Position numbers and translations under genes: made by a program
Shown: positions 1 to 52,214 of the stretch, one piece after another
Layout: every line of letters begins with the position of its first letter
How positions within the stretch are numbered: position 1 is the stretch's first letter
NCBI RefSeq assembly: GCF_963676685.1
Contig: NC_092345.1
Coordinates: 78,678,001 to 78,742,000, forward strand
Length of the DNA: 64,000 nucleotides
Reading direction: 5' to 3'
DNA from: Mytilus edulis
Taxonomy: Eukaryota
Notes under the pieces: model-generated
The model's database searches: none
What the model was told of the DNA's origin: nothing
Seen by the model: the letters and a program-made list of their open reading frames with translations, nothing else

Positions 1-2
1 AC

Positions 3-404
3 GGACACTATGGTAGATCGGTCCACCGTCATGGACACTCTGGTATATTTGGTCACCGTCATGGACACTTTGGACATCGTCTAGGACGCGTTAGTCACCA
101 TCATGGAAGTTTCGGCCTATTTGGTCACCATCATGGACATCATCATCACCATCACGGACATGTTGGTCACCATCACGGACATTTTGGTCACCATTATGGA
201 CATTTTGGTCACCATCACGGACATTTTGGTCACCATCACGGACATTTCGGTCACCATCATGGCCATCATGGGTACCGTCATAAAGGAAAGTATTACGGAA
301 AAGCTAGGAAGTACTACAAAAAATATAAAAGGACAGGAAATAGTAAATACTACCGGAAATCCCGAAAATATCACAGTAAAGGTTACAAAAAATATTTGTA
401 TTAA
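3..404 (+). CDS. Mussel foot (byssal plaque) protein, His/Gly-rich block followed by an mfp-5-like Lys/Tyr block (mfp-9/mfp-5-like); 5'-partial
   Basis: Frame starting at nt 3 is open to TAA 402-404: GHYGRSVHRHGHSGIFGHRHGHFGHRLGRVSHHHGSFGLFGHHHGHHHHHHGHVGHHHGHFGHHYGHFGHHHGHFGHHHGHFGHHHGHHGYRHKGKYYGKARKYYKKYKRTGNSKYYRKSRKYHSKGYKKYLY*. The C-terminal ~40 aa closely match the mfp-5 C-terminus as recalled (KGKYYGKAKKYYYKYKNSGKYKYLKKARKYHRKGYKKY). Confidence 0.9.
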   Translation, partial: GHYGRSVHRHGHSGIFGHRHGHFGHRLGRVSHHHGSFGLFGHHHGHHHHHHGHVGHHHGHFGHHYGHFGHHHGHFGHHHGHFGHHHGHHGYRHKGKYYGKARKYYKKYKRTGNSKYYRKSRKYHSKGYKKYLY

Positions 405-465
405 TTCACATTAAATGTATGAGAATTAGATTTTTTAATTATTCAAATCAATCTACTGTTCTTTA

Positions 466-730
466 TAAATAAGATGTGGTATGAGTACCAATGAAACAAC
501 TCTGCATCCAAGTCACAATGTGTAAAAAGTTATCAATTATAGGTCAAAGTACAGCCTTCAACACGAAGCCTTGGCTCACACTTAAAAACAAGCTATTAAG
601 GACCCCAAAGTGACATGCTTAAAACAATTCAAACAGGAAACCCAACGGTCTAATCCATAACAAAAACGAGAAACGATAAACACGTATGAACACGACCAAC
701 AAACAACAACCACTGAAAAACAGGCTCCTT
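466..730 (+). repeat. Dispersed repeat family A copy (AGATGTGGTATGA..CCAATGARACAACT...)
   Basis: Same sequence at 44928-45290 (+), 28183-28446 (-), 48365-48562 (-), 29500-29615 (-); eroded copies near 7960, 12830, 23110 and 50540. Confidence 0.8.
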
Positions 731-1339
731 GGAGGGAAATTTGGACGAACAAATGAAAAAAAGGGGTATAAAATGTTAGATAGGAGCAGGAACTTTGCCT
801 TGCAAATGGCCACCCTGTACCCCTTACAAACTTGTTGGAAGTAACTTGTTAGCACTAGAATCGTAATGCGTTTCTTTAGTACATAAATGTAGCTGTCTTT
901 GTTTTTTATATGCCCTTTCTCTTCTTTCTCATATCGTTCATTTTAAATCAATAATATTGCAGAACGAGGCATTGATCTATGTATCATTTGAAGAAAAAGA
1001 AAAAAAAAGAGTTGGTACTTTCCTTTTGATCTTTCATTAATGTACTTCGATCAAATGCAAATATGCTTCCATTTTCTTATTGTAGACCTGTATCGCAGTG
1101 TAGTTTGATTGAACTTAATATTTCCGACTTGCATGGGATTGATTAAAGTTAGAAAAACTATTTCTGCACCATAACAAGATAATTGCATTAAATCAAACAA
1201 GGATGTCTTAAGAGTTGAATGAATGAATTTATTTATTTGCAAAAAGCATTTACATGCTATGGCAATCAAAACATATATTACATATATGACACAATAATAA
1301 ACAGCAGAAAACAACACATCATACAAAGTGAAGTAAGAA

Positions 1340-1990
1340 TTTGACATCTCATTTTCCATACTGCCTTAATATAATTACATAATTTTATAGTTGCTGTTTT
1401 ATTGACAGCTTTTAACAATTGATCCAGTTTATAAATATTTGGCCAAGAACAAAAGTATTTTGGTAAATAATGTGACCTTGCAGGTCTTTATACAGGACAA
1501 ACTAAAACAAAATGATATTCGTCTTCAACAACGTTCATATTACAACAAAGACACAATCGTAATTCTCTTGGCGTATTGGTATATCTACCAACTTTGATAT
1601 TTAATTGAAGTGTCCCACTACGTAGTTTCGTAAGTAATCGATCATCACAAAATAAATTTAAGTAATTTTCAAGACAAAAATCTGTCTTGATTCTTTTATA
1701 CATGCAAAGTTTTTCACAATCACATAAAGATGTGGACCACTCTTGAAAATATTGATCAGTAATACGTTTTTTAACAATATCAAAAACTACATTAGTTTAT
1801 AGTTACATCCTGTGAAATCCACAAAAAGTTCAGGCCAAGATTAGACAATAAATCTCGTACATAAGAATCCCAATTTGTTTTACCATTAATAACATCTTTA
1901 TACAGAAGCATGTAAACATCGTGAACAACACTTGTTTTTTTTTCAATAAAATATGAAACCAATATTTTAAAAGTATAGTTAACTTTTAAA
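1340..1990 (-). mobile_element. Degenerate non-LTR retrotransposon (LINE) ORF2 C-terminal fragment
   Basis: Translates to KLRSGTLQLNIKVGRYTNTPRELRLCLCCNMNVVEDEYHFVLVCPV, a CCHC-type LINE C-terminus. Upstream frames give KYWF...NWDSYVRDLL...DQYFQEW with frameshifts. Confidence 0.75.
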
Positions 1991-2489
1991 GAATAGCACT
2001 AAGTAAAAACACGCAGAATCTTTACATGAAATGCTATATAGTTATATGAGATAGACATTCGGAAATTAGAAAACAGGAAAAGCTTAAAAATAAAGAAAAA
2101 ACAAATTATACGAATGAGCATTAACATTTTAAGCCACGATGCTACACAATATTTTTACTTCACGGGATATTTTAGAATTGATTGTATTGCTGCTGTAAAT
2201 TCAAATCCCATTTAAGAGAGCAAATACCTTCAGATATTGATTTATGTTTTATAATGTTGGGCTGTGTCTCTTTAGAAATACACATATTTCATTCCTTTTA
2301 ACTATTTATTTAAGTATTCATAATAATATGAAAACACGTAAAAGATTTTTTTAAAAACCCATTAAGAAAGAAAAAGTTAAATGTATACATCCGCTAATGT
2401 TTTTTCCGATTTGATCAGTTTTCCTTCATTCCTACATTATTGACACTGACGTATACTTTGTTGGATATTTCCTTTCATTAATATGTAGA

Positions 2490-2965
2490 GTTCGGGTGGG
2501 ATTGTACTTCATGTTCATATGATGAAGACATAATCTTTCAAGCAGTTTAACTGAGGTCTGGAGCTGACATGTCAGTAGCTGCTAGTAGTCCTTTGTTAAT
2601 TTATTTATCATTGTCATTTTGTTTAGTTTCTTTCGTTACCTATTCTGACATCGGACTCGGACTTCTTTTGAACTGAAATTTACTGTGCGTATTGTTGTGT
2701 GTTTGTTTTTTCTATATTGGCTGGAGGTTAATGGGTTGAGGGTTGAAATCTCAAAAACATGTTTAACCCCGCCGCATTTTTTAGCCTGTCGCAAGTCAGA
2801 GGGGCCTCTGTCCTTTGTTAATCTTGTGTGATTTTTAGTATACATTTTTGTTTAGGGTCCAACTGAAGCACCCCTCCGGTAGCATTGAAGACCCGGGTGT
2901 TCTCTGCTCTTTGGTCGGGTTGTTGTCTCTTTGACACACACCCCATTTCTATTCTCAGTTTTATT
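2490..2965 (-). repeat. Dispersed repeat family B copy
   Basis: Reverse complement of the element at 59270-60010 and 57972-58272 (shared GCGGCGGGGTTAAACATGTTT and CAGCTCCAGACCTCA). Confidence 0.8.
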
Positions 2966-5154
2966 CAGTTTGAAACAACATCAACTATTCAGCAGTTTAC
3001 TACCTTTATATGATAAACTGAAGTATAAGTGTGGTAAAGCAAGTTTATAAGCTCTCCGCTTATTTTTTCTCTCTCACATATTGGAAAACAAAGTTGGGTA
3101 GTATGGTAAAGTGAAGTCATTTGAATATTCATTATTTATGTAATAGATCTATGCTATTGGCAAACAAAATTTATTATTTCAATATGAATCAATAATAGTA
3201 ATTCGGAAAACACTGACTGTCTTTGCGTTTCTATCATTTAGAAGTATAGTATTGTGGATAGTTGTTTCATTGACTTTCATACATCTGGTTATGTTTTAAA
3301 CTGGATAAGAAATCTTGCTATTTACTCTCAGTGGGTGTTTTACATACTATAAAACTAAATACGGAATTGTGGTGAATCTTCACGAATATGGTCATTATCA
3401 TACTCATTGGAAATATTATTTGGGTAACCGTTATCATATGTATATGTCCAATGCTTTTAAAAAATCAAATAAATATAAAAATGTCCAATATGTTCTGTCT
3501 TTCCGATATATCAGTGTAGAAACGAAATTTGTGAAGTCATCCTCATGACATAAATCATTTAATTATAAATCAAATTTAGTTATAGCATCACCAAAAAAAC
3601 CAAACATCTTAGCATTAGATTTTTTGTTGCCAACACAAAGTCCTCTTGATTAAGACCTTTTCTTAGTGATGATGTAACATATTTTAAGCAGGAAAAAAAA
3701 ACTATAAATTGGTCAAACTATAGCTAGATTTCACTTATAAATATATCATGATTTTTTTGTGGAAAGCATTGTTCTATCCACAGAACAAAATTGTGCATCA
3801 CAACTATCTTGTTATGAAAATGTAAATCATAAAGCTAAACAGTTTCAATATGAATTGTCCTTTAAACAATTCTGTTTGCCTTAATACTATTGAAAATTTT
3901 TTGATAAAGGTGATAACTAAACTGTTTTTCAATCTTACGTCTCGTAATGATGACTTTTATGATCATCAATTCGCTTATTGAAAGTTTGTAGCAGAAATAA
4001 AAACTTTTTAATTTGTATTTCTGCATTGTAACTTTGTTCATGTTTATTGATTGTTTTACACAAGGTGTTGTGTCCCTGTATTGAAACTGGTATTTGTAAC
4101 TTAGTTTCCTGGTGATCCAGGCCATGTTTAGCTGATTTAAACAGTTTTGTTTATTTTAAAAATGCTTTCGTAGAACTCCATTCTCCCATATAAAGTTAGT
4201 TTAAAGTGATCCCAAACATATCTAAACCTTTTATATTTTTGTTTTTTCCCTGTCCCTGTTATCGTTGGCTTCTGTCTGATTTATTTGCTTACGTTTATTG
4301 TTTTAGCACTTAGCTATTTTGGTACATACATACGAAGTCATGTGAAATCAAAGGTTTTCACAACTCTTTAATATTAAAAATCATCAAATATATCATTTAG
4401 TTTAAATTATACAATAGTTACTAAAAATGTGAAGTTCCTAGGAATTTAATTCTTCAGTTTCCTCTATAATCCCGGGTAAATCTGTTGCCATTTACTAATA
4501 ATTTCCATGACTACGAGCACTATATAAAGTTCTATAGAATAAATTTACATGAATGTTACCATAATGAACAGCAAAAAGAAATAGCAGTAAAATCATTTAT
4601 TTATCAGAAGTTAATGTAATTATTCTCATTAGAAGACCAAGAAAGTTAAAAGGCTTAATAGGATGCCTTCATGACATAGCTAATTATATCGTCAGGAAAT
4701 TTACAATCATATGGAGTTTTCATGAATTATAACGGGTCAAAAATATTTTAACACGAAGAAATATTCAATTAAAGGATGCTGACAGCGAAGTGAATTTAAG
4801 TATAAGGAGTTTTGGTAGAAAAAAGTGTGCGAGTTTATACAATTAGATTAAGCTACAAAAGAAAAAAATATCATGAATCACTAGGTATTGATATATAGTA
4901 TCAAATGGTTCAACATAACTCATGGAAAGATGTAATAGTATTCTGGTGAATTTTATATTTCTATAAATATAAATTAGGAACTGATTCATTTGAAAATGCT
5001 TCTTATTCTACCAAGTATTACTTAGCTTTACAGAAACGGCTGTATTTGAGTGCTTTATTCTTTTTCTTAAATGAACAATTAAGTTTTCCGGAACGGCAGA
5101 GAAAGGAATTTTCATCATCAAATATATATATTGTATAACAATAACTATAACATA

Positions 5155-6123
5155 ATGGAACTTTATGGTACTGGTTTTAGAGTTACTTGTTTGGTGTTTT
5201 CTATCTTGATGTACATCATTGGAACCGTTGGTAATTTACTGATTATATGGACTATTACCACAGTAAAACGAATGAGAAGTATTCAGAATATGCTTCTAGC
5301 ATTGTTGGCTGTTATTGACCTTCTTATTATAGGATATTTAATGCCTTTTGGTATGCACGTACTCATAACAAATGAAAAACCAGGATTTGGTGCATGTCGT
5401 TTTCAGGCAATCATCACGGCATTTTTATTTTCATGTAGCATTCAATTCATTATGTTCATTGCCTTATCGCGTTACTTTAAAATTTGTCATAGCCAGAAGT
5501 TTAACAGAATAGTTACCGCGAGGAACGTTATAATAGCAACAATAGGGGCGTGTGCGGTAGGGGCTTGTTTCGCGTCCTCGCTGTGGTTTTTTGAATCATT
5601 GTGGACATTTGAATTTCCAATGCATTCCTGTATTTTTGACAGATACGGATCAGTGACCTTTTCCGTGATCTTTATGGCAGTTGTTATTGCTTTTCCTGCT
5701 GGAGTTACAGCTTTTTCGTACATACGAATATATCGTCATGTGAACAAGGCTAGAACACAACTTCATAAAAACTGGAACAACGGTCTTGCACAAAGAAAAT
5801 TTAAATATGAACAAATCTTAACAAAGACACAATTTGTAGTGTTTATTGTTTACATGGTGATGTACTTTCCGTTCGGAATAACGGCCGTAGGTGGACAGAG
5901 ATCTGATTATCCCGATGTTCTGCATACATTGTCTATTTATATGTGTTATCTGAATAGTTGTATCAATAGCATATTGTATGGCGTTTTGAACAAAAATATG
6001 AGAAGAGGCTACTTGGAATCCTTACGATTTGTTAAACCGAATCAGAACAATAGTGTAGTACCAACAGTGTCAGGACATTTGAGCGGAGGACAAACAACAC
6101 AAGCGTCAACACAACAAGGTTGA
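5155..6123 (+). CDS. Class A GPCR, melatonin-receptor-like, single coding exon (322 aa from the first ATG)
   Basis: Seven hydrophobic segments; GN in TM1, LAxxD in TM2, SRYFKICHS after TM3 (cf. NRYxxICHS of melatonin receptors), NSILYGVLNKNMR in TM7/helix 8. The ORF-track start at 5131 is a TTG; the first ATG is 5155. Confidence 0.9.
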   Translation: MELYGTGFRVTCLVFSILMYIIGTVGNLLIIWTITTVKRMRSIQNMLLALLAVIDLLIIGYLMPFGMHVLITNEKPGFGACRFQAIITAFLFSCSIQFIMFIALSRYFKICHSQKFNRIVTARNVIIATIGACAVGACFASSLWFFESLWTFEFPMHSCIFDRYGSVTFSVIFMAVVIAFPAGVTAFSYIRIYRHVNKARTQLHKNWNNGLAQRKFKYEQILTKTQFVVFIVYMVMYFPFGITAVGGQRSDYPDVLHTLSIYMCYLNSCINSILYGVLNKNMRRGYLESLRFVKPNQNNSVVPTVSGHLSGGQTTQASTQQG

Positions 6124-9100
6124 TATTTTGTAAAACATGAATTGATCAAGTGTTAGTTGTATTTAAAGTTATGTTATTTATAAGTCGATATTTTTATAAA
6201 AATACTTATTTTCAGTCCCTAAAAAATACATCGGGGTAAGTTTTTAAGTTTGAAATTCCCTCTATCTATTATATATGATTATTAAAATGAGATAAACCGC
6301 AAACTAATTGGTAAAATAAGGATTAGGAGCAATAAGGTCAAATTGCCTCTTTTGATGTAAATAGACAGTAGGCAAATATCGTCGTTGTAAACAATTCTCC
6401 ATCTTGGTTTTCAAGATAAAAAAGGAAAAACTTGTATGTTGTCCTAATGTTATATTCTAGGCCATGTCGGTCATGTCGTTCCACAGGCTGGCTCAGCGCG
6501 CACTTTCTTTAAACTAGCTATCCTAGTTATCATATTTTTTTTTAGAGATTATTGGCGTTTAATTCGATCGCTGGCTAAAAAACTTTTGAAATACATATTA
6601 GTTGGTGAGTTAACTCAGCCGGTTTACACGACAATACCTTCTAAGTATAATGATTTTGTGCTTATATTTGTACAGGGATAGGACGTCTCTAATGTTATAT
6701 CTGTTTGTGTCAAATTCATTTTATTAAATTTGCAAATAATATAAAGTGATTGTTGCCAAGTTTGTATAACGCGAACTATTAGACAAGTAGGATAGAAGTT
6801 ATCAATAATTAATTCCAGACAATATATTTTAAGTTATATAGTGACAATTTGTTTATCCGTCTATCTAACCTTTTTACATTTCTTTGTGATTATTTTATTC
6901 TATTGTTAAATAAATTTTTTTTTGTGTTCGTCGTAATTCAAACATCCTCTAGTATAACAGATTGAATTCGTGATACGAATTTCTGGATTAAGTTTTTACA
7001 GTTTTTGTGATTTGTTAATACCGATTAGATGTTTTTTTGTAATTTGTGATTAGGTATTAAAATTCGTGATAACGGACTGTTATCGGAATTACGTATTTTG
7101 TTAATCTTGATTACGAATTGTATAAATCGTTATGATGAATTAACTGTAAATAATTCATTATTACGAATTACAAAAGTTTGTGGTAAGGAATTTAATCCGT
7201 TTTAACGAATTACAAAAACTATTTTAACTAATTCCATCAATTCATGATAACGAGATTATCACGAATTCAATCTGTCATAACCATTTTTATTTTATTGGGT
7301 CTTTTGTGAGGAGTTGTCTCATTGGCAATAATACCGCATCTTCTTTTATTTTTATATTAAGATAAAATAAGCGAGAATGACAATAGGGAATGTTGTAAAA
7401 AAGTCAACTACTTAAGAACATAAAACAACTCAAAGCCAGCAATGGGTCTTCAACACGAAAAATCCCGCACCCAGAGTTGAGCTTCAGATGGGCCTTAAAC
7501 AAAAGTGTACTAATTCGGTGAAAATGGACGTTTTTGCTTATAGTTTTAATTTATACATACACAATGCAGTTAGTATTTAATTTGTTTGGTTTTTAGCACA
7601 TCTGTCATTTTGGGACCTTTATTTTTTACGTACCAAATTCCTTATTGTAAGTTTTCTGTAACAATTTTCAGCTTTATATGTGTTTCCCTTGGATTAATTT
7701 ACCAAATCGTTCTTACGTCGTTCAATTCAAACTTGTCTTCGCAACATCAATGTTATTTCATGTACCTCAATTTAAATACCTCAATTTTAAAGTACCATAT
7801 GCAACGCGTAGTTGACTTGATTGTAAATTACAGTATTTTCAGCTAATGTCATTTTAACTAACTTTGAGTTAATGGTTCTGATTCCCTTCACTCCCTTTTA
7901 TATTATTTTACTCTTTTATCCGGCAGAAGATATATTTAGTTCATTTCAGTTATTTCAACGCTGTATATGACAAGATATAGTATAACTTCCAATGAGACAA
8001 ACACTCGTAAAGACCAAGAACATCGAAGGACAAAGCATAAATAATTACAGGTCACCATATGGAATTTGATAATTCGCAAAAGAAAACCCCATACCATGTA
8101 GTATTAAGCAATAAAACGGCTCGGTATGACAAATGTGAACCTATTCAGAATAGAAAAAATCCCAGCCTGGTACATACTATAACAATAAACAAATTTAAAG
8201 GCTATGATATCAAGCAGCAATCAACGACTACCAGTGCAGGGTTTGACTTTTGACATAAAATGTGAGTTGAATATCTTTGTGTGCTCAATCCTGCTATTTC
8301 TAAAAATAGATATAGAAATTATGCTCGAGAGCAGTTCAACATAGATTATATTGCACAACTCATGGTAAATATAACATACAGCAATAACTTTTTATCGAGT
8401 TTGATATTTATTCTTGTGTAATGGTAAATGATATTTAGTTGCATACACTTTATTTGCAAAGATGTGTTGATTAAAAGCCTTTTATCAATATTGTAACTTG
8501 CGTGTTTCAGTCTTAATTAACAGTACAAGCTTTTTGTCATTGGGTTTCTTGAAATAGAAGTTGTACACAATTTTTACAGAAGTTAATGGTTAATTATGAT
8601 AACATTTTAAAGTTCCTCTGCATGTGACATACTTAATTCTTTTTAATTGAAATTACAGAAAATAAAGATTAATGGAAATGGTTTGAAGCTAGATGATATA
8701 TAAAAAATATCGCTAGGTGGTAATTTATAAGGAAAATCTAATAATTTCTCAGCTCTTACATGTAACTTATTCATTTATATAAAATAAGAAGTTAACGGTG
8801 GATCACAAACTAAAAGCATTACTAAGATAAAAAGACAACTGCATCTCCAGTAAAACAAAGACGAAATGATAAAAATTTAAATAACAACAGCACACAATTG
8901 TAAATTAAAGAAAGTCACACAGCATCTTGACTAATCAAAAAAAGGGAAAAAACCATGAAACATACCTAACATTGATCATTTAACTTTATTTTATTAATTA
9001 GTTGACATTTTTATACAAATATTTACTTCCAGTCCTTAAAGAAAAATACATCGGGGTTTAAAGGGAGGGAGTAAAATGAAAAGACAGGATGGCAATGAAT

Positions 9101-10138
9101 TTTCTGCACTACAAAAGGCAGGAAACAAATACACAGGTGTACCAAAGTCATAATCAACAAATGAAAATATTTGATCAATTCTACTCGCTTAACATAAATA
9201 TAAAAAATGTTTCTGTTCCTGTTTTAAATTAATTTACTGACTTTGTTTCGTTCGATAACAAATTTAAATATTTGATTTTTTTCATGGTTTACCATTTGTA
9301 ACAACATGTTAAGATTTTAGAATATTAACTGAACCTTGGCTAGCAATGATGATATATACCATATACATATTATTGTACCTAAAACAAACTTACCAAATTA
9401 GTTATCAATATCAATGCAAACAAGTTTGCAATCATTATACTGAATATGTCTTTTACTTTAAAATAAGTAAAGTAGTGTTGTTAAACCCTTAAAATGATAA
9501 ATTTCGAAACAGATTAGATCAGAGCATCGAATGTCTCGTTTCAGGAAGCCCATGTAGGACATCCGAAAACATAATTTTAATTCGAAATCGCGAATTGTAT
9601 AATTCGTTGTCATAGATTAAATTTGTGATAACGAATTTGTGCTATTCGTTATCAGTCAAACTGACGATTTCGGCCGTCTGAAAAAAATGTGAATCTCGTC
9701 TTACTGATTATTTTGCTTTGTAAAGTTTCCCTCTATCTGATATAGTTGAAAATAAGAAAAACCGCAAACTAATTAATCAAAAAGTGATTAGGAGCAATAA
9801 GCAATAAGGTCTATTGCCTCTTTCAATCATGTGGAATTATTTTGTAGATCTTTGTTTTATGATCATTTTATAATAATTTATATATAATTTTCAAAATATA
9901 GACAAGACACAAAATATAAAAAAGCCTAAATAAAGGAAAATATACAAATACCTGTAAATAGTTATTTAACAATTTTGACGTAAATAGACAGAAGGTAAAT
10001 CTTCTAAACAATTCTCTATCTAAAGTGGTTTTCAAAATATGCGATCATATCGTTCCGAAGGTGGACTAATTCCATAAATTCAAGATAACGAGATTATCAC
10101 GAATTTAATCTGTCATAACAAATCTACATTTGATAAAT

Positions 10139-10508
10139 TTGGTACCGTTAATGTTATTACTACCACTGGATCGATGCCTCTGCTAGTGGACTGTTAGTCC
10201 CCGATGGTATCACCAGCCCAGTAGCCAGTACTTCGGTACTGGCATGAAAATACGGATTTTTTGTGTTATTAAAATTTGCTGTTACAAAATGTTAGAAATT
10301 ATTATACATTAAGGAATGTATCTCCCTCATGCAAAGCTCTGATTCCTTTCACGGATTTGGTTATACTTTTTGGACCTTTTTGATTATTGCTCTTCATCTT
10401 TTATTTAAGCTTTGGACTTCAAATATTTTGGCCACGAGCATCGCTGAAGAGATATGGATTGTTGAAATGCGCATCTGCTGCAGGATAATTGGTACCGTTA
10501 ATGTTATT
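10139..10508 (+). mobile_element. Non-LTR retrozyme monomer, family 2 (350-nt period)
   Basis: Direct repeat TTGGTACCGTTAATGTTATT at 10139 and 10489, exactly 350 nt apart; contains a hammerhead core at 10438-10481. Confidence 0.8.
10438..10481 (+). ncRNA. Minimal type I hammerhead ribozyme, family 2
   Basis: gcatcg-CTGAAGA-gata tggat tgtt-GAAA-tgcgca-TC-tgctgc: core CUGANGA/GAAA/AUC intact, palindromic AUGCGCAU stem III, one mismatch in stem I. Confidence 0.8.
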
Positions 10509-10739
10509 GATAACGATTTCTACGGAGGCCCATTCGAATCACGAATTTAAATCTGTTACAACGAATTATACATTTCGTGATAACGATTTGAATTCGTGAT
10601 TTCGAATTCAAATTATATTTTTTGGAGGTACTAAATCGGCTCCCTGTTGATTTCAAATCATGATTTGAATTTAAATCTTATTTTTTTAAGGTACATTTTG
10701 TACCAAATGATCTTCCGTAAATATGTCTAATAAGTATAT

Positions 10740-11480
10740 ATATGTGTAAATCTTATTAGAATATGTTTTGAACAAAGCTATCAATATCTGGGTTTTCTAA
10801 TAACAGGTTTTTTAAATTATGATGTAATGACTTAAGTTGAAGCCAAATCAGCTAACAGGGAATTAAGTTTGATTATGATATATAGTAAGGCCCATGGCGA
10901 TTTCCTGTACAGTACATTTAATAAACTATCCAGGTTTGGTCAGTTATAAGTTATGGTGCAGCCATTTGGGGAACCAGATATTTTTCGTGTAATGATGGTG
11001 TCCAGAACATGGCTTTCAGGTCTTTTATGGGTGTGGATAAATATACCCCGAACGATTCAATTCAAGGGGATATGGGCTGGAGACCTCCCAGTGTTAAGCA
11101 GTAGACCTGTGTTTTTCGACACTGGTTTAGATGTAAAATAATGTGAACAGATAGATGAGTTACAGAATATTTAAATGGTGTTACAGTAATGGTCTTAATA
11201 AGACACGAAATTGGTGTTTTAGGATTATGTCTAAGTTTAAAGAATGTAGTTTAGATTTGTATGTTAATTTAAATAATGGATTGCATAAACAAAATATTAC
11301 ACAGATATAATAAGTTTTATTTGATAATTATATAGAAAACTTGCAAAATAGAATTTTGTCACAAAATGCTTGTAAAAAATTCCGGGCTTATAAATTGCTT
11401 AAAGACAGTTATGGAAGAGAATTATATGTACTTAAACATTTATCGCATAGATATAGAAGTGCTTTTGCAAAAATGCAGCG
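10740..11480 (+). mobile_element. Degenerate LINE RT-thumb/C-terminal fragment
   Basis: Translates in part to YGAAIWGTRYFSCNDGVQNMAFRSFMGVDKYTPNDSIQGDMGWRP and KKFRAYKLLKDSYGRELYVLKHLSHRYRSAFAKM, with frameshifts. Confidence 0.7.
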
Positions 11481-14099
11481 GGGTTAAACATGTTTTGTGA
11501 GATCTTAACCCTCTCCTATACCTGTCATACCTCTAACCAATGAAGAAAAACAAACACACAGCAATACACACAGTAAAACTCAGTTTAAAAGAAGTACTTA
11601 CAAGTGTAAGACTAAAAAAAAGTTAAAAAATAGCATATCCATATACACTAATCCTCTATATTGACTTTACAGCCCTACTGTTTCTTGTGGTTTGAATCAT
11701 GAAAACAATTGAAATGAATATATGTCGATACCTATACTTTGGCATTACACATTCCTTTATTTTGGCATTGCACAAAGTCATATTTTTCTTCTGACTGTTA
11801 ATGAGGTCTTGACAATAAATCCTTTAGATGTTGGATGTGTACGGAGATATGTTTTAGTCTTAGATACAACTTAGCGAGAATGAAAATTTGGAATGTGTTA
11901 AAAAGGCATCAACCCGACCAAAGAACATAAAACAGCCCAAGGTCACCAATGGGTCTTCAACACAGAAAGAAAAATCCCACACCCAGAGTTGGGCTTCAGT
12001 TCAATCAGTTGGGCCTTAAACAAAATTGTACTAGTTCGGTGATAATGGACGTTTTCGTATATAGTTTTATACATACACAATGCCGTTAGTTTTCTCGTTT
12101 GGTTTGTTTATCATATCTGTCACTTCGGGGCGATTTTTACGTACCAAATTCCTTATTGAACGTTTTCTGTATCAATTTACTAAGTTTATAGCTTTATATG
12201 TGTACCCCTTGGATCAATGCACCAAATTATTCATACGTCATTCAATAGTCCATTTGCCAATTACCAATTTTATTCTGTTAATACACACTTTTTAAACAAA
12301 TTACTTCCCTTTGTCAATCGTAGACTGGTTCCATACCGGACAAATTTGGCTTTTGCCAATGCAAAGTATGGTGATTTGAAAGTGATGTATCGGCAGTTTA
12401 ACTATTTTTTCTTAAAAAATAATTTCTGATGTCAAAAGTATTTAGATTAACAACAAATTAATGTAATACAAAGATTTGAAAGCCTTAAATATTACTCGCA
12501 TTACGCACAGGTAAATTTGCTCGTTCTGCTAGCTCTCCATTATAAATGAAAATTAATGTCCCTCATAAGGGAGACAACTGAAAGAGGGATCTCTTATTAC
12601 AGGGTCAATTACGGGAATTGGCAAATAGCCTAATCAACTTTGTCTCCGAGTCTTCATTGTTATATGTATTTCATGTACCTGAATTGAAATACCCCAATTT
12701 TAAAGTATCAAATGCCACACGTAGTTGACTTGATTGTAAAACACAGTATTTTCAGTTCATGTTAATTAAACCAACTTTGAGTCATGGTTTTGATCATTAT
12801 GTTTGCCATTTTATTTCAACGCTGTAAAAAATGAGAAGATATAGTATTAGTGACAATAAGACAAACACTCGTAAAGACCAAGAACACCGAAGGACAAAGC
12901 ATAAATAATTACAGGTCACCAGATGGAATTTGATGATTTGCAAAAGAAAACCACATAACATGTAGTAAGCAATATAACGGCTCGGTATGACAAATATAAA
13001 CCAATTAAGAATAGAAAAAATAACATACTACAAAAATGAACAAAAAATCATTTTGACAAGCAGCAACTAACGACAACCATTTCAGGGTTCGGGCGTATGA
13101 CAGGCACATAAAGTTTGAGTTTATAACATATTTGTGTACTGAACCCGGATGTTTCTAAAAATCGATATGGGAATCATGCTCCAGAGCAATTCAGCTTAGA
13201 TAAAATTTCACAGCTTAGGATAAACATTACATACAGCAATAACTTTTGATCGAGTTTATTATTTTGATGAATGCTAAATGATATTTAGTTGCATACACTT
13301 TATTTGCAAAGATGTGTTGATTAAAAGCCTTTTATCCATTTTGTAACTTGCGTGTTTCAGTCTTAATTACCAGTACTAGCATTTTGTCATTGGATTTCTT
13401 GAAATAGAAGTTGTACACAAATTTTACGGAAGTTAATGGTTAATTATGATAACATTTCAATGTTCCTCTGCGTGCACGTGACATACTTAATTCTTTTTAA
13501 TTGAAATTACAGAAAATAAAGTTTAATGGAAATGGTCGGTAGCTAGCCGATATAGAAAATAATCGCTAGGTGGTAAAATATAAAGAAAATCTAATAATTT
13601 TCTTCAGCTCTAACATGTATCTTATTCATTCATATAGAAATAAGAAGGTAACAGGGGATCGTAAAATAAAAGTAAGATAAGAATTATAATTGCATCAGCA
13701 ATTGAACAAAGACATAAAGATAAAACTTAAATAAATAACAGCACACATCCATCAATAAAAAAAATTCAGACAGCAAATTGACTAATGAAAATAATTGTAG
13801 AAAACATCAAACATACCTAACATTCTTATGTAGAAAACAAATTAAAACATTTATCAATAAACTCATATATACCAGGACTAAATTCTGTATATACGCCAGA
13901 AGCCTACAGAAAAACGTGTCGAAATGCTACTCCGGAAGAGTCAGCACCTTCACTTTCACTAATGCCATCATATTTTCCAAAAAACTATCAGCATTCCTAT
14001 AAGAACCAACAGTGTTTCTCTTTTTGTCGAATTGTTCCTTTATTTGTATGAGGCAAATTTCATTCAAGTGCATTTCAGAAAACCTATGAAAGAAGCTAG

Positions 14100-14500
14100 C
14101 ACAATGCATTAACTTGATGTTCTGGTTCAAAGATGATGTCCTCTCACTAATTTATTCAAGGTTTGATGACTGTACATCTATCCCATCAAACTTCAAATAC
14201 GGAATACTAGAAAAATCTAGTCTTTCTCATATCTTGACTTATAAATAGAAATTGACAAGAGGTCCGACTTGCTTTAGAACAAGACTTTTCGGCAAAAACG
14301 ATAGGTGCCAAATACGGAGCAGGAACTGCTTACGCTTTCAGAGGCACCTGATGTTTGGTGTGGGTTTGTGTTGTTCGATCAGTCATGACTGTGTGTTCTA
14401 TGGAGGATAGACAAGCCTTTTCGTCATTTTGTTTTTTGTCATGGCACTGCCTTTTTTCTTCGACTTATGAATTTGGAATGTCCCTTCGCAATTTTTGACT
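14100..14500 (+). mobile_element. Eroded Penelope-like element fragment (RT remnant plus 3' region)
   Basis: GATGATGTCCTCTCACTAA..ATCTATCCCATC..TCATATCTTGACTT (DDVLSL..IYPI..SYLDL) and GGAGCAGGAACTGCTTAC..GCACCTGA match the element at 35062-35952. Confidence 0.65.
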
Positions 14501-14935
14501 ATTTTTTAAAATCACACAGGACTATTGATATTTCCCGTCTTATCCTATTAGAGTAAGACATCTTTAAATTTATACATAATCTAAATTGTTTAAGTTAACC
14601 CTTAAACATGATTCGATTTTAAAATCCAAAACTGAAACATTTTTTGCTAGTCAATTGTTAGAAACAAAAACCCCGTTACCAACAAAAACAACAAGAAGGG
14701 CTGCGAAATAACAACTCCACAAGTGTCAGTGGATATGTTAATGAAATTGTGATTGTGTACTTGTAAACGTTAATACAAGATTCAGTGCATGCATAAGATT
14801 TTATATATCCCAAAATAAAACGTCGCTACTAAATAATTCTTATGTGGTAATATAAATGTTATTTTAATTCAAATTTAATTCCCTTAGCACTATCGGCGAG
14901 TTTTGAAGACACATGCGTAATGGAGAACAATAATT

Positions 14936-17900
14936 TTAACGCCATGGTCCCCAGAAGCCACCACGTAGTTCAGGATTTGCCTGTGGATCACTCCCAGGAA
15001 ATCTTACTGGTACTGAAGATTTGTCATACTCCGCCAGCATATCTAACATCTCCTTAACTATTTGTGGACGGCTTGCTGATAAATCTGTTGTCTCTAAAGG
15101 ATCGTCTCTTATATTAAACAACCAAACGTTTTTCTTTCTTGAATCTTGTGGTGTTGATCTTGCCAAACCCGTTCTCGGGTTTGGGTTATAATTTTTGTAC
15201 CCTTAAATAAAAATAGATTGTGATATTGAATGCAGCAACTTTGTAATAAATTTGTTTCTACTTATTCGTGATAAACCTTTATACTTACCCAAAAACATGT
15301 ATCTAATATTTACGAAAATACACCGTTTACATTAATTCGACAACAACATCCAAATGAATCTTCAATGTGTTGATCCCATGTGTATTGGTGACAGCCTCGT
15401 GCTTACAATTTTTTTTCTGCATCTAGAGGTTGAGAAAGAGACAGAAAAGGAGTGCCTTGCATACGAAAAAAATACAAAAATACAGGAAAATATTTTTTTC
15501 TTAATCTTTTCCGGTAAATAACACGAAGTTTCTTTATTAATGTAATTACATAGTTCTTTTAAATATTTACCTGGTTTTCCAGTCAGAAGTTTGTAGTCTT
15601 TATATCGAATAGCAGCATGTTTCGTAGTATCAAAACTACTGTTAAATAATGGTCTGCCAAACCGACGCGCTAAAGGATCAATACCATGAAGAATGACTTC
15701 TCTGGGGCTCTTCTCTCTCCCACTGATATATTCAATCAAAATTGAAAATAAATAAATACATGTATGTATTATGCTCAACTTACAACAATATAATAATATT
15801 TAAAAAATGCAGTAACATAACAATTGTTTAATACCGAACACTTAAAATCATTATTGAAAGAAAACATAACACAAATACAAAAATAAAGAAGTAGAAAAAT
15901 AGTGAAAATATCTTGAGACTCGTGTTGCCGTTCTTGCTAATTTCTCATACAAGCTTACTAATATTTTTCAACTCTATATATAAAAAAAAACATGTATAAG
16001 ATATATACTAATAGTTGTAATTTATTTTGATTTCTGTAGTCTCTCATCATTCTTAATAGAATGGTACTTGTATTTTAGTTTATAAAATGTCTGTTTCATT
16101 TACATAAATCAAAAGTATATATCATTTGTATATCATGATGATTGTTTTATATGTATACATGATGTATTAGAAGTGGTGAAACTTTAATAAAATATCATCA
16201 AATAAAAATAAGTTAAACGCAATAGGACTCCCAAAGAAGACATAAGGATATGAACAAATTACTCTTCTCGCCTAAACATTGGAGTTTAATTACCAAAAAC
16301 ATCTGACATTCAATTAATTATTTTGGAAATTAACGAAGTTAATGATGTACACCTCTGAGGAGCCAAACATTTCTAGAATTAAATTTGGTTTCTTCAAGGA
16401 TTTGTTCAGTACTTTACAAAGCCTTGGTTTTACTTGATTTTTTGGTTTATATAAATGTAAGAAAGTAATATGCATGATTCCAATCGTTATATTTCCATCA
16501 TAATTTAAACGCAGAATACTGACATACCTTATCGCATCCCACTGATCAAATCCGTCGAGAGGTTTTACCCCTTCAAAGTTCCCTTGAGCCTGATTTACAA
16601 GTGTTGGAAACCAGTCAGTAACATGCATTAGTTCTCGAGACACTGTCCCTTTATTTCTTACTTGTCCGCCACACACAAATCCTACTCCACGAATTCCTCC
16701 TTCAAAATTACCTCCCTTGTTTCCTCGCAATGGATAATTATTGCCACCTCTACTGATTTGACCACCATTATCTTGAAAGAATAATTATTTAATAAAGTGT
16801 GGTCTGTCAGTACAAGCCAACTACAAGACAAAAAAATCAAAGATTGAAGGTGTTATGCTTGAAATGGTATAGAAAATATAGTAATGTTACATATCTTATG
16901 TAGGTATTTCCCTATAATATTTTTCGTAAGAACCTAGATTTTCAAGCTAAGGACAGAAAGAAACCTTACACAAATAATGTAGACGTAATATCAAGTGTCA
17001 AATTTACTTATATTGCAAAAATGCTGATATGTGTAATCCTAACCAAAAAAGAAATAGTATCATCATAATGAATTATTTATTCGTGAAAACGACTACGTAG
17101 CTTACATGTATATTGCCAACTTTATTTAATTATTGATTAAACCAATTTTGTGGAAAGTGTTATATATTTTGTTACCAAAGTTTTAAAATATGAAATATAA
17201 TCACAATTTTGTTTTGTTTTAGCAAAATTAATTTTACTACTACTGTCCCTATAACATTTTGAAAACTATGAATCCCAAAAGGGTAAATTTTCAAAATGAG
17301 AAACAATGAAATTGAAAGTTTAGTCTCATTAGAATAATATTTTAGATAAAGGCCAAAAGGCTTAAAGCCAAATTTTGCTTGGATTATTTTATTGAAAATA
17401 TTCGGACATGCATGTACTTTTGCAATAAATTTAGCAATTAAGATGTGCTGTAAAATTCATTTTAAAATAGAAGTCTACAATAAGTGTTGTTTTTGTCAGT
17501 TGCAATTGTAAAAAAAAACGGGGGTTAATCTGTCATTTTGCTGTGAGAAGCTGGAAAATCATTGTAATTATGTGCCAAAATCTGTTGAGAGCTTTTAACT
17601 TTAACAGAATGGCCTTACCTGTTGAAAAGATAAAGATAGTATTCTCCCAGAGTCCCTTTCGTTTTAGGGCTCTCGTTATATTTCCAACACCTTCGTCTAA
17701 CGCAGAAACCATTCCTTTCAAAAGAACAAAAATATCAATTGTACATAATTGTAATAATCAACATCTTTGTGTTTCATGTCGAACAATCAATTATGTCATT
17801 AATTCATTTCAGAGCTCTGAATTCATTCGTTACTCGTGTCCTTTTTCGCTACGAGGTTATAATAAAAAAGGTCCTGAAATTGTTTACAAATTAACCTTTG

Positions 17901-20900
17901 TTGTGTATTTTGATTAATAGTTATGCATTCGGTGATTATGTTTATATTGGACAATGACGCAAACGTGTGTGCAAATGCTTTACACAAGGTTACAGACTGT
18001 TTATTTTAATCATATTTCATTCCTTTCATATAGTATCAATAACATGTAGATAGACAAAGATCTGAAGCATCTACATCATGTGGAGCAAACAATGTTTATT
18101 TGAACAAACTTCGAACGCAAGACATGACTGTTTAAACTGTTGCTCAATTTAAATATTTGGATACTGAATCTTGTCATACAGTAAGTTTGAGATGCCTATA
18201 TTGTGTTTCACTCGGCGTTTCCGGAAAAAAAAGTTTACGTTTCCGCAAAGAAATATCTTACCTTTCCGGAAAAAAGGAACTATTCCGGAAAAAATAAATT
18301 ATTGCTTTTCCGCAAATAATTGAGGAATACTTGTTGATCGAAAGCAAAGCCATAATATAAAATAAATATTAAGTAAGTCAAAGGTCATCATAACATGCAA
18401 GTAAAATTCATCATTTAAATCTATGAAAACGTATGTTCAAAAGTCAGCACTAATCAGAAATATCTTGATATGAGTTCATAAGTCAGTTCTGGCAGAATAT
18501 TTGTAGCCAATACGCCGCACAAAGTCCACAGTAGTACATTCACCGTTTACAAGTTTTGTATTTTGTTCAAGAAGGAAGTCCATCTTCTCCTTTTCACATT
18601 TCCAAACGAGTGCTTTTACAGTTAGAGTTCTCATCTTTATGTAAGATGTTGTTTGCAGTTTCAATAACACATCGATAAAAACAAAAATGTTAGGATGGCT
18701 AGCGTAAAACTGCTCGTTCAAGTGGGCATGAAAAGACTCATCCCTATTCGTGTTTTCGTAACAGCAGTATGCATTACACATTCAAAGTCATTATGAACTA
18801 CCTCGGGCTGGTAAGTTATTCTTCGGGTAGTGCACACATCAATAAGCCGATCCAACAGTTTCGTGTAACATTCCTCGGATTTAAGTGGAAGTAACGCAAA
18901 TACAAGACGAATGTAGTTACCATTTTTACATCCATGTATCGAATAAACTTAGTTGGTAGAAAAATTTCGGACAGGATTTAAATGTGCCATCTATGAAAAT
19001 ATCAGTCATTTCATTACATAGACATACCAAGTTGGTGAAACATGAAAGTATAACGATTCCCGAATCAAATTCATTGACGAATTAAAAGTGAAAATAAGTC
19101 TCAGTTTTGTTAGTGTTCAAATCTATATGTCTTAATGTCTCGTGAATTTCTAATCTACATTTAGGTAATTTTGGAAACTGCTTTCGCCTGTCTCTGTATA
19201 AGGGCATAGCAACATTTTTCAAGTCAATATATTTTCAAATATTTATAATTTACCAGGTAAATTTCCGGAAAAGTAATAAATGCAAATTGCTGAAACGTTT
19301 ACTTTAAATTTGCGGAAACGTAGCATTGAGACTTTGAAAAATTAGCGGAAATGCAATTCGCCCGTTTCACTGAAGGTATCATACGTTCACTCATCCATGA
19401 CGAAATGACGTATCACTCATACGTTCACGCATACATAACGAAAGAACTCTTTATCGACTATTGGCTAGCTTTATTTTTTTATTATTATGGAATCGAATTT
19501 AAATTCATCGTACAACACCATTGCCAATATATTATGTCATTTAACTTTAAAACTTAAACTGCCAAGGTAACTGTCTTATATCCAAGTCGATATGAGAAGA
19601 TAACTATGTTTGGGTAGCTGTCTTATATCTAAGTCGATATTAGAAGATAATTATGTTTGGGTAGCTGTCTTATATTTAAGTCGATATGAGAAGATAATTA
19701 TGTTTGGGTAGCTGTCTTATATCCAAGTCGATATGAGAAGCTAATTATGTTTGGGTAGCTTTCTTATATCCAAGTCGATATGAGAAGATAATTATGTTTG
19801 GGTAGCTGTCTTATATCTAAGTCGATATGAGAAGATAATTATGTTTGGGTAGCGGTCTTATATCCAAGTCGATATGAGAAGATAATTATGTTTGAGTAGC
19901 TGTCTTATATCCAAGTCGATATGAGAAGATAATTATGTTTGGGTAGCTGTCTCGTATCTAAGTCGATATGAGAAGATAATTATGTTTGGGTAGCTGTCTT
20001 ATATCTAAGTCGATATGAGAAGATAATTATGTTTGGGTAGCTTACTTATATCCAAGTCGATATGAGAAGATAATTATGTTTGGGTAGCTGTCTTATATCT
20101 AAGTGGATATGAGAAAACATGTGTTTGGGTAACTGTCATATCTAAGTGAGTAACTTCTAGATATCACGAGCAAACATGTGTTTTTGGTAGCTGTCTTAAT
20201 CTAAGTGGATATTTCATGAGATTGTCTCTTACCTGCATACTGTCGTCTATGTATATCCGGAATAGTATTTTTGTATGGATGAATATATCTCTTTGGTGCT
20301 TGTAGAGGGGAATGAGGAGCTTGATATGGTACATACATGAACAAAGGCTGCGGATGACACCAAAAAAATAATGCAATACTGTATTAATCTTCAATAACAA
20401 ATAAATAGCTATTAAAGGACTGAAATGTATATGTTCATAAAACAGATAAACACTATCCTTTTTCTGTACTCACGGTTACCTTAAAATTGACAAATATGTT
20501 ATATTTTTCCATGTAACAAATAACCTTTATTTTTCTTTTAATTATTAATGTCTTGGGTTTTATTTGTTCTAATTAGTGTATAAGTATATCAAATAACTTT
20601 TTGTAGCGGATAATTGCTCCGTTTTGAAGAAAATTAAAGCGATATGGTGTTTAATTCAAGACAGAAATCCCCCTGCTGAAAGCAAAAGCAACGTCGATTT
20701 ACAGAATAGTTTAAGATTTCGAGAAATAAGTATTAACTTATTGTTGCATCAAGAAATATACCTTAGACGATTGGTGACTATCGATGATATCCACAGCTCG
20801 TCGTGAAAACAGAGTTGTCGAATATTCACGATTGGTTCGTATTTGACGTTCATTTTCCCTAAAATCATCCCCGCACATTCCTCGGTCACAACGTCTGTGA

Positions 20901-23900
20901 TGATAGTGGGATTTAGAACCGACCAGAAAACCTGAAAAATAACGAACATGAATCGACAAAATTATATTATTGTTTTTTTTTTCTTTTTTTCTTTTTTCTA
21001 TAAATTCGTATATTGCAAGTCAATTCTTCAGTGTTTATTAACTTATTCAAAGAACGAATTACAAGCAGATTTAAATTTCATAATCATTACCAGGCAAACA
21101 AATGATTTCATCTTTATGCATGAACATTAAATGACTGAGACTTTAAGGGGGTGAATTTCATATTTATGATTTCTTGTTACACTTGGAAAAAAATTGACGA
21201 TATCATTACTCATTTCTAATATTTCCGTGTGGTTTTTTTCAAAGTGGTTGGTCTTTTAAATATGCATTATAGAGATGACGTATGATTTCCAATGATACAA
21301 ATATCCATCACATATAAAAAAAAAAAAAAAAAAGTTCGTCTATTGGTTAGATGCATGTTTTTTTTATATTCATAGTTTTAATTTTTAAACCTTTAATTTG
21401 TTCTTTATGATGTACCTTTGTCTTTGCTTTTTTGATATCGCTTAACTTAATATGTAAATTATATAATTTGATTCACCATAAAATGTATCAAATCCTCGTC
21501 GTGTTGGAAGAAATTCATTTTTGTAGAAACCAAGATGCCATTTCCCAATACAGTGTGTGCTATATCCAGCCTGTTGAATTTTATCTGCTATAGTCAGACT
21601 ATCGGTTGGCAAGGCAGTCGGTTTAGATGGCTGTATATTACCATGTTGCATTCCAGTACGAATCTGTAAATACATGTGGAAACCATAAAATTAAATGAAG
21701 TTTTGTACCAGTGAGATATTACATTTGTTTGTGGCACAAATTGACATTAAATCAGTTCCAGATGAAATAAAAAATCATCGTATACCACGATCTATACAGG
21801 CCTAGAATTGTACTAATCATGCCCAATTATATGACACGATAGAACATTCAAATGTTTATATTCCTAGTTTGTCCCCAGCGTGATGCGTTCGTCCATCCGT
21901 CTGTCCGTTCGGTTTTGTTGACGCTCTCGCGTGTATATTACTTGTTTAGTTTTTATAAAACTTATAGCATAGCTTTATGCAAGCAATGTCTCAGACAAGT
22001 TCGAAAATCAGTGCTGATCATTTCTTCTTAAAAGGGTTATAATTATGCCTCTCGGGAATATTGATTATATTGGAAATTGCATCGCATTTGCTCTGAACCC
22101 TTCACTTCTCTAAGATAGTTGAAAAAAAAAGTTTTCGTTATTGCCCTTGGAAAGATAATGGATAGATGAAATATGTGCAACGCGGGCAACATTGGAACTC
22201 TATTTTATTTAGCATACTGCATTGATAAGTTTTATTTGGCACAACTTTTTGGACTTTTGGATCCTCAATGCTCTTCAACTTTGTACTTGGTTGGCTTTAT
22301 AAATATTTTGATATGAGCGTCACTGATGAGTCTTATGTAGACGAAACGCGCGTCTGGCGTACTAAATCATAACCCTGGTACCTTTGATAACTAATTATGC
22401 AAAAAGTACTTGTAGATGGCATTGGTAAAAAAATTAGTATAAAGGACTTGAAATACATTTTGGTTAGTACTATAGTTGAATATTCAGATTCGTAATTATA
22501 CATCACTACGATTTAAACTTCACTGTATCTATTAATAAATGACGACACTATTGGAAAAGGAAAGACTGCAGATCTATATTATCTGTTATGTAGTTTGCCT
22601 GTTACACATGTATATATGTGTCTGAGTGTTTCAAAATAAAGTTATTATTTTTCTGTTATTTTACTTTCCACTCTTAAACACATTGTTTTTAAGGATGGAC
22701 ATTACAATAAAAGATTAAAAAAAAAAGGATGAATTCATCAAAAAAAGGTAAGGCAAGCTATATCGTGTTAATGTAAGTAGTATATAAATTAAAAAAAATC
22801 AATGCTCAATGCAACATTGAAACAAAATGAATTCCTGTACCCTGTAGCGCCTGTGCTTAAAGTCATAAATGTCTCCAACTAATTAGTGACATCTGATGTA
22901 ATATTTCTACTGGTAACCACTTTTTAGTCTTTAACTTCCCCGTCCTTTGGTCTCTGGTGGAGAGTTGTCTCATTGAAAGATTGGAAGGTCTGCGACTTAG
23001 ACATATCTCTGTGTCCATAAAATAATTGTGATCGGAATAATAGGAAAGGTTCAGCATAAGTCGATAGAACAGACACGATATAATATAATAAACATAGTAC
23101 ATATAAAATCAAGACATGTACAATGATTTCCGATGAGACGACTGTCCACAGAGATCACTGAATGGCAGGAATTTTAGCAGCTTTATATGTTTCCGTTCAG
23201 CAGATGCAATAATAACCAAAACTATACCATTTAACAAGGTATAAAAGTCTCTGGTAAGATACATTTCAAACAGAAAAGCATCGGCCTGGTTTATAATAAA
23301 ACCAAACATAAAAAACAAATCTGGCTTACAAAACAAATGACCAACACTGCATTGATTGCCCTTTTATTAGTGTCTCATAAGTCGTTTTTGTGGTTGTTTT
23401 ATGTGTATGTATCTATATAATTTTGCTTATTTTCTTGTCAATTTAAAATATGTGAGATCTTAATAAACTATTTACTTACTTTACTTTCTTCCTCTGTTGT
23501 AAGTGTGGCATTATTTAATTGTCGCAAATCATGAATTATATGGTCATAATTATGAATTAAATGTTTACAAAACTTAAAATTTTGAAATTCTAAGGCTTTT
23601 CTACACCAGGAATAGATTACTTTAGCTGTATTTGGCAAATATTATAGATGTTTTTGATCCTCAATGTTCTTCAACTTCTTACTTTATTTGTGCTTTTTAA
23701 CTGTTTATTCGGGCGACATTACTGATGAGTCTTTTGTAGACGAAACGCGCGTTTTGGCGAAAATACATAATTTCAATTTTGGTATCTATGATGAGTTTAT
23801 TTATTATCAACTATTAAAACAGGACATGATCTTTTGAAGCTGTAAAATGAAATTATGTATATCATAGTCTATACTACTCTTACCTGGTATCTTCCAGACA

Positions 23901-26572: not shown

Positions 26573-26696
26573 ACATAGGAACAGCATATTAAATGAAAAG
26601 CTAAAACACATACTTAAGAGATGTTTTACATTTAAGATATCCATGATTTTGTAATTAATAAGGGATACACAAATTTAAAGCTTCTCGTTTGCTTGA

Positions 26697-26773
26697 GGAT
26701 CACTGAAGGGACATTAATTGTCGAAATGCGCATCTGGTACATTTAAATTGGTACCGTAAATATTATTATTGAT
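26697..26773 (+). ncRNA. Family 2 hammerhead fragment with core substitution (CUGAAGG)
   Basis: ggatca-CTGAAGG-gaca ttaat tgtc-GAAA-tgcgca-TC-tggtac, followed by the TTGGTACCGTAAAT family-2 tail. Confidence 0.7.
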
Positions 26774-51824: not shown

Positions 51825-52214
51825 CGCGTCTGGCGTATTAAATTAGAAGCCTGGTACCTTTGATAATTATTAACATCACTGGGTCTATGCCAGTGCTGGT
51901 GGACGTTTCGTTCCCGAGGGTATCACCAACCCAGTAGTCAGCACTTCGGTGTTGACATGAATATCAATTATAAGTTCATTTTTATAAATTTTTTGTTACA
52001 AAAAATTTCAAAAAATAAGGTTTTTCTTATCCCAGGAATATATTACCTTAGCCGTATTTGGCACAACTTTTTGGAATTGTGGGTCTTCAATGCTCTTCAA
52101 CTTTTTACTTGTTTGGCTTTATAACTATTTTGATCTGAGCGTCACTGATGAGACTTATGTGGATGAAACGCGCGTCTGACGTATTAAATCAGAAGCCTGG
52201 TACCTTTGATAATT
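51825..52214 (+). mobile_element. Full retrozyme family 1 monomer (346 nt between GUC sites) flanked by ~44-bp direct repeats
   Basis: CGCGTCTGGCGTATTAAATTAGAAGCCTGGTACCTTTGATAATT at 51825 and 52171; hammerhead 52139-52182 with weakened stem II. Confidence 0.85.

Follow-up and report, generated by a model that had tools for sequence, protein, structure and literature searches.

The window, by which is meant the whole stretch of 64,000 nucleotides of Mytilus edulis DNA that was analysed, holds at positions 10137..10506 (+) a retrozyme insertion of 370 nt, or 1.06 units, delimited from its sequence and by comparison with its family. To its left lies one copy of a 7-nt target-site duplication, TTGATAA (10130..10136, +), recognised from the sequence and from the duplication statistic of the family, and to its right the other (10507..10513, +), whose initial TT also forms the final bases of the element; at both junctions a microhomology of 2-3 nt leaves the exact edge ambiguous. 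The initial annotation had placed here a 350-nt unit bounded by a 20-nt direct repeat, and the repeat is indeed exact (10139-10158 and 10489-10508) with a spacing of 350, but the true insert is the one between the TTGATAA copies. The left copy of the repeat (10139..10158, +) represents a 5′ overshoot, a second pass over the tail, and the tail itself, which runs for 33 nt from the cut site to the fixed 3′ end of the family, the putative start of reverse transcription, occupies 10476..10508 (+). Between these lie a Naiad-type start hairpin (10165..10222, +), absent from the earlier note, which begins 6 nt after the fixed-end register; an 8-bp UUCG hairpin (10224..10243, +), whose Naiad counterpart is shorter and precedes the Naiad ATG; and a type I hammerhead (10438..10481, +) with a predicted cut after 10475. 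No open reading frame of 110 aa or more was found over the locus.

The insertion and its surroundings

The right flank is an older dispersed host repeat (10509..10640, +), with related sub-repeats at 10065-10136 and, inverted, at 9561-9637. With 40 of its 198 candidates scored, this flank gave at least 99 matches. Of 10 paralogous loci, 4 hold host-repeat sequence, without the retrozyme, immediately upstream of the right-flank sequence, in agreement with the original reading of an insertion into an older repeat. An exact orthologous empty site for the insertion was not found, and the search with the left flank gave 3 matches only, with no empty site among them. The copy has 95.4% identity to the majority of 28 other units (the best matches of the family search), these units themselves reaching 97-99%, and it has a duplicate 40 kb away on the opposite strand, within an inverted duplication in which some 16 of the first 17 kb of the window are repeated at 97.8-99.9% identity. 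From the private changes in its hammerhead and the host-repeat sequence at 4 of the 10 paralogues, this would be an older insertion, decayed and 5′-truncated, which was later duplicated together with its neighbourhood. At a larger scale, an inverted duplicate lying 20-37 kb before the start of the window matches positions 1-6770 of the window at 99.9% and 7935-17183 at about 98%, and is either a recent segmental duplication or an assembly duplicate.

The window also carries copies of another retrozyme family, family 1, at 22250-22392, 23640-23800, 43800-43950 (-) and 51826-52219, the last of which is a monomer with overlap and has 75% identity to the 350-nt unit over its first 150 nt. The 350-nt family is a homologue of the CUGAUGA family (22317 and 52139) and yet a separate one, so its initial designation as a second family stands; a short family-2-like piece lies at 26695-26770. 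Elsewhere there are a single-frame receptor of the rhodopsin family (5083-6123, +), a 712-aa RING/B-box/NHL (TRIM-like) frame (52779-54917, -) and a minisatellite of 47 nt in 12 copies with 93% matches (19566-20141).

The hammerhead

The core read in the initial annotation, CUGAAGA/GAAA/AUC, is present at 10444-50 and 10464-67, with the AUC ending at 10475, in a copy that is otherwise degraded: of its five private changes (10443, 10453, 10457, 10463 and 10478), one turns the basal pair of stem II from G-C into G-U, one gives a further wobble, one alters the loop, and the other two leave stem I with a wobble and a mismatch. The core is kept, stems I and II are weakened, and the fold energy is +2.2 kcal/mol, as against -3.7 for the family. 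From its sequence, this hammerhead is probably dead, and could neither cut nor yield a circle. Five of the 14 rare changes of the copy sit in the 44-nt hammerhead (p 0.024, post hoc), an excess that is read here as chance or weak counter-selection and given no further weight. A subfamily defined by this variant was considered and rejected, since, beyond its 2 exact matches, which are the locus and its duplicate, there is a single further match, with one mismatch.

As for the recognition of the motif, a loose core pattern has 22 matches in the window compared with a shuffle mean of 8.5, a number reached in 4 of 100 shuffles; by itself this is weak evidence, and the case rests on the family. With Rfam (E<=1), neither the locus nor L022, an intact array of the family, gives a match; in the window Rfam scores only the other family (at 22317), and its Hammerhead_1 model scores neither this copy nor L022. 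The isolated hammerhead folds no better than its shuffles, and the folding of the whole circle is likewise unremarkable (z -1.5 for the family unit and +0.7 for this copy, 40 shuffles each). Across three related families, on the other hand, 5 of the 12 hammerhead pairs have changed on both sides, which favours a hammerhead that is real and under selection. In the family it is of type I, one per unit, with an intact core and three helices, and no LTR. Helix III has two pairs and a palindromic tetraloop, for which it can be likened to the invertebrate retrozyme hammerheads of PMC7229834, in the available part of that paper; the term "minimal" used at first, which belongs to the PLE variant, does not apply.

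Abundance, ends and arrays of the family

The exact 37-nt hammerhead of the family has 3,101 matches in the genome and its reversed control has 0. A search of the genome (1.37 Gb) with the unit gave at least 114 matches (40 of 2,735 candidates scored), many of them in tandem, in arrays of up to 9 units with a 350-nt period. The unit is therefore a short non-coding sequence in dispersed tandem copies, as is characteristic of metazoan non-LTR retrozymes (150-450 bp); it is without LTRs, and its duplications, when present, are longer than 4 bp (7 nt at the locus). The plant LTR retrozyme, with type III hammerheads in its LTRs and 4-bp duplications, was discarded as a class on account of the type I topology and the lack of an LTR.

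Among the best-match loci, 20 of 22 end at unit position 19-21. In order to reduce bias, a further sample was taken along contig C1, made up of the loci to which its first 100 hammerhead matches belong when ordered by position; being chosen by exact hammerhead match on one chromosome, this sample favours young copies that span the cut. In a first count, 67 of 68 arrays ended at unit position 17-29, the exception being one half of L112, an array that a later insertion had divided. Once both halves of L112 had been dropped, along with L049, L084 and L106, which are duplicated loci, all 63 non-redundant insertions ended 30-42 nt past the cut (unit position 17-29), 47 of them at 19-22, and their 5′ ends were scattered. 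Their lengths go from 75 to 3,190 nt (median 270 nt), that is, from 0.2 to 9 units. The "short terminal redundancy" first proposed for this copy is not supported as a defined feature: since only the 3′ end is fixed in the sampled insertions, the 20-nt overlap is a chance overshoot, in which the 5′ end happened to land just past one turn.

The behaviour at the cut site is relevant to the form of the template. Of 2,503 exact tails, 2,387 (95.4%) run on across the cut, the shortfall being about what divergence alone would remove, and none of the 25 insertions longer than one unit begins at the cut (a weak test, with 0.5 expected if starts were uniform). Copying crosses the cut and then runs for a variable length, so the template must be continuous there, and these same two counts speak against template jumps from one cut linear monomer to the next. 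Duplications of at least 5 nt anchored at the junctions occur in 25 of the 63 insertions, where permutation gives 6.4 on average and 16 at most (300 permutations), and usually overlap both ends of the element through microhomology; the other 38 have no duplication of this size. Fixed 3′ ends, scattered 5′ ends and short duplications are marks of retrotransposition, and on this point the initial description of a reverse-transcribed copy was right.

In the 18 arrays with at least two full units, these differ by 0.85% within arrays and by 3.3% between them; 16 of the 18 have at least one rare variant common to all their units, 7 are without any internal difference, and one, L064, is mixed, with a unit that differs at 4 sites from its three neighbours. 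The rare variants and the low internal difference indicate that each array descends from the sequence of one monomer. Such homogeneity would fit the rolling reverse transcription of a circle, and would also fit the copying of transcripts of arrays that were already homogeneous.

A hairpin shared with the Naiads

A genome search for GIY-YIG endonucleases gave at least 150 scored matches. When 46 of these loci were compared with the unit, the C-terminal-endonuclease PLEs among them had no similarity to it except for neighbouring retrozyme insertions, and the one similarity beyond such insertions was located at the 5′ end of a 1,053-aa frame with an N-terminal GIY-YIG. From this protein three young families were obtained, A, B and C, whose frames are open over 1,053, 1,007 and 1,000 aa, and which carry the marks of the Naiads as set out in the available text of PMC8557442: N-terminal GIY-YIG, CxC, DKA and C-terminal RT. 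The GIY-YIG of Naiad C falls under the Pfam cut-off (E 0.037), and this family is 56-64% identical to A and B; the protein of family A agrees almost letter for letter, as compared by eye, with the printed part of Naiad_Mgal. A canonical hammerhead was not found by pattern in the Naiad loci L227, L239 and L243, nor was CUGANGA in the non-coding parts of Naiad A or C.

Unit positions 21-90 resemble the 5′ start of all three Naiad families, the closest being Naiad C (85.5% over 69 nt, E 2.6e-18), and apart from this hairpin region the unit has no real similarity to any of the three. The 58-nt hairpin folds alike in both retrozyme families and in Naiads A, B and C (six versions, z -2.0 to -4.2). 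Over six sequences, with Naiad A left out of the pair count for its 21-nt insert, 6 of 23 pairs change on both sides, compared with 2.5 in shuffles (0 of 500 reach it) and at most 2 when the pairing is slid, for a structure that was derived from these same sequences and has four lineages behind it. In the copy at the locus, the substitutions at 10170, 10185 and 10205 break pairs. Likewise, free Naiad 3′ ends lie near a point six bases before the stem: 17 of 17 within 3 nt in Naiad C, and 13 of 14 in Naiad B and 22 of 30 in Naiad A within 4 nt of the shared register. The retrozyme and the Naiads thus have in common both an end signal and a register of their 3′ ends. The core motif of the hairpin was absent from the 5 C-terminal-endonuclease PLE loci checked.

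Other associations between the two kinds of element were also seen. Decayed family-1 pieces (72-77% identity, dead core) are present in the Naiad B 3′ UTR at all 8 loci L234-L241, e.g., L239:4938-5368, and short retrozyme tails are found within Naiad A 3′ UTRs or at their ends, those in L154, L188 and L190 being of family 1. In L245 the Naiad A 3′ UTR terminates in a family-2 tail, the outcome expected from a template switch. In addition, for 2 of the 63 retrozyme insertions the site is a Naiad C-like 3′ end. At L259:7739-9730 (G000:C12:78783738-78785729) the Naiad C start hairpin is repeated in 24 identical copies of 83 nt, without ribozyme and without pLTR, in an array that starts in the initiation register directly upstream of an open Naiad C frame, and that may be due to repeated template jumps, to a mini-circle or to an assembly artefact. 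These copies suggest that the Naiad machinery can build uniform arrays without a ribozyme and, together with the near-identical Naiad C tandems, they imply that homogeneous arrays are no proof of a ribozyme-made circle. Separately, L146, L148 and L158 are tandem C-terminal-endonuclease PLEs in which an additional frame, of about 400-425 aa and with no Pfam match, lies upstream; a canonical hammerhead was not found in them by pattern.

A third family and the transcription of the retrozymes

The RNA provides a control for the role of the hairpin. Through loose ends in the reads a third retrozyme family was found, of about 550 nt (551), with 1,200 motif matches, whose hammerhead is near-identical to that of the 350-nt family and which has no match to the hairpin. 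Its ends are different, 9 of the 15 scored being at unit position 437-441, some 375 nt past its cut, mostly at (TA)n runs. With a near-identical hammerhead, no hairpin and a different end, this family indicates that the fixed end follows the hairpin and not the ribozyme. The third family (L171:1300-2100; also L124, L135, L144, L150 and L151) lies beside 5 of the 46 GIY-YIG loci, and in an RNA variant of it helix III is UCCGGA and the cut triplet AUA.

Four RNA-seq runs from 2 studies, chosen by their species label, placed 2,094, 1,937, 2,421 and 788 reads on one family-typical unit when 6-18% of each run was taken, a depth to which partial reads from related families contribute. In 3 of the 4 runs there is a strand bias toward hammerhead-sense RNA, and 39-309 reads per run span the joint of the unit. 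At the position of the fixed end the reads break into unrelated sequence, and these loose ends are heterogeneous, in all four runs, which come from other animals. In the same runs there is no pile of read ends at the cut site and no pile of starts at the hairpin. The family is transcribed as continuous RNA, for which short reads look the same in a circle and in the read-through of an array.

Mobilization of the family

On these grounds we consider it probable that the locus belongs to a 350-nt mussel family of hammerhead non-LTR retrozymes mobilised by Naiad PLEs through the shared RNA hairpin. The cycle could be as follows: (i) the arrays are transcribed, mostly on the hammerhead-sense strand, as seen at the level of the family by RNA-seq of a species that carries it; (ii) by analogy with the available results of PMC7229834, the intact hammerheads would cut after AUC and the monomers would be ligated to circles; (iii) a Naiad protein would bind the 58-nt hairpin and nick A/T-rich DNA, and reverse transcription would be primed 33 nt 3′ of the cut, at a point that precedes the hairpin by about 6 nt, if the enzyme behaves as the one in the available part of PMC11167929; (iv) the enzyme would then cross the cut, where the template is continuous, and run for a variable length of 0.2 to 9 units; (v) and finally, the 5′ junction would be joined via short microhomology, often with a short duplication, as the statistics of the insertions indicate. 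The copy studied here would afterwards have decayed and been duplicated with its neighbourhood. In a more general form, which in our opinion has an even chance of being correct, retrozymes would be ribozyme-made circles with a stolen Naiad hairpin, on which a hammerhead-free Naiad RT would prime 33 nt past the ligated cut and roll round the circle; ribozyme and driver signal would be modules open to exchange, and the 58-nt hairpin would act as a transferable tag, enough to let any circular RNA integrate.

With regard to the template, a circle seems somewhat likelier than an uncut multimer. That the same Naiad driver copies multimeric read-through transcripts, with a hammerhead unneeded for mobility, is a tentative alternative, suggested by Poseidon PAc, the one Penelope tested in vitro, for which unprocessed RNA was the main substrate in the results available from PMC11167929, as well as by the existence of ribozyme-free Naiad tandems and of the 83-nt hairpin array, and by RNA reads of which none end at the cut site; but the covariation of hammerhead pairs across three families speaks for a ribozyme under selection, arrays of up to 9 units with array-specific variants in every unit require a bottleneck of one monomer in each round, and the related mussel retrozymes accumulate mainly as circles, according to the accessible part of PMC7229834.

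An assignment to another enzyme is unlikely. The hairpin could be shared by descent, or could be a promoter or 5′ signal, as its position just before the Naiad ATG would permit, so that the copying would be done by a C-terminal-endonuclease PLE or a LINE; several young C-terminal GIY-YIG PLE families are indeed in the genome, and Xenopus retrozymes resemble PLE pLTRs in the available text of a preprint (10.64898/2026.07.22.740005). However, the retrozyme and all three Naiads have their 3′ ends in one register relative to the hairpin, its core motif is missing from the 5 C-terminal-endonuclease loci, and RNA starts do not accumulate at it. A satellite-like spread at the level of DNA by unequal crossing-over, with the 20-nt repeat as a target duplication or recombination scar, would account for the internal homogeneity of the tandem arrays and is discussed, as DNA-level expansion, in the accessible portion of that preprint, but is very improbable, because the 20-mer is family sequence and not target sequence, the ends and duplications are those of retrotransposition, and most copies are dispersed and shorter than one unit.

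Retrozymes of this class have been published before, and the copy at the locus is a dead and unremarkable representative of them; the anatomy of the family is of interest in that the literature, in the parts available, has settled neither the enzyme that mobilises the retrozymes of animals nor the point where their copying begins. Both could be addressed in one in vitro assay, since there are now a named candidate driver (Naiad C, whose 1,000-aa frames are open), a 58-nt signal in which changes are compensated, and a start site located to within a few bases. The hairpin also points to an RNA element that the Naiads themselves would use, and hammerhead and mobilization signal would appear to be exchangeable between families.

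Comparison with known systems

Non-LTR retrozymes with two hammerhead families were reported in Mytilus galloprovincialis, with a proposed mobilization by PLEs and with cleavage and circularisation demonstrated for one mussel retrozyme (Cervera and de la Pena 2020, PMC7229834, available part). The family described here resembles them as a 350-390-bp tandem non-coding repeat with a type I hammerhead and low GC, and differs in that the accessible text of that work gives neither a fixed 3′ end nor a link to Naiads. A mussel sequence published earlier (PMC4918200, Additional file 11, 375 nt, as available) has a CUGAUGA/CGCGCG core and represents the other family, and the letters of the hairpin are present in this 2016 sequence, without comment in that portion of the source. 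The 350-nt family, with its CUGAAGA/UGCGCA core, may or may not be the second family of PMC7229834 as far as its available text describes it. No paper linking Naiads to retrozymes was found in the openly accessible literature that was searched.

With the Naiads, which are abundant in Mytilus (Craig et al. 2021, PMC8557442, in its available part), the retrozyme has in common the start hairpin, the register of the 3′ ends, the heavy 5′ truncation and the partial tandems; unlike it, the Naiads of that text encode GIY-YIG and RT and are without a canonical hammerhead, whereas the retrozyme encodes nothing and has only about 70-90 nt in common with them. A similar comparison can be made with Poseidon PAc (Frangieh et al. 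2024, PMC11167929, available part), which also has an internal start of reverse transcription 3′ of the hammerhead and A/T-rich targets, but which starts 111-118 nt into its ORF, at two sites, with a C-terminal endonuclease and mainly on uncut RNA; the retrozyme has one start site, 33 nt past the cut. Finally, the vertebrate retrozymes, in the accessible text of the preprint (10.64898/2026.07.22.740005), are likewise non-autonomous partners of PLEs with similarity to PLE termini. There the link is established in Xenopus via hammerhead-bearing pLTRs, while in the mussel the partner has no canonical hammerhead, and the ribozyme and the mobilization signal look like separate modules.
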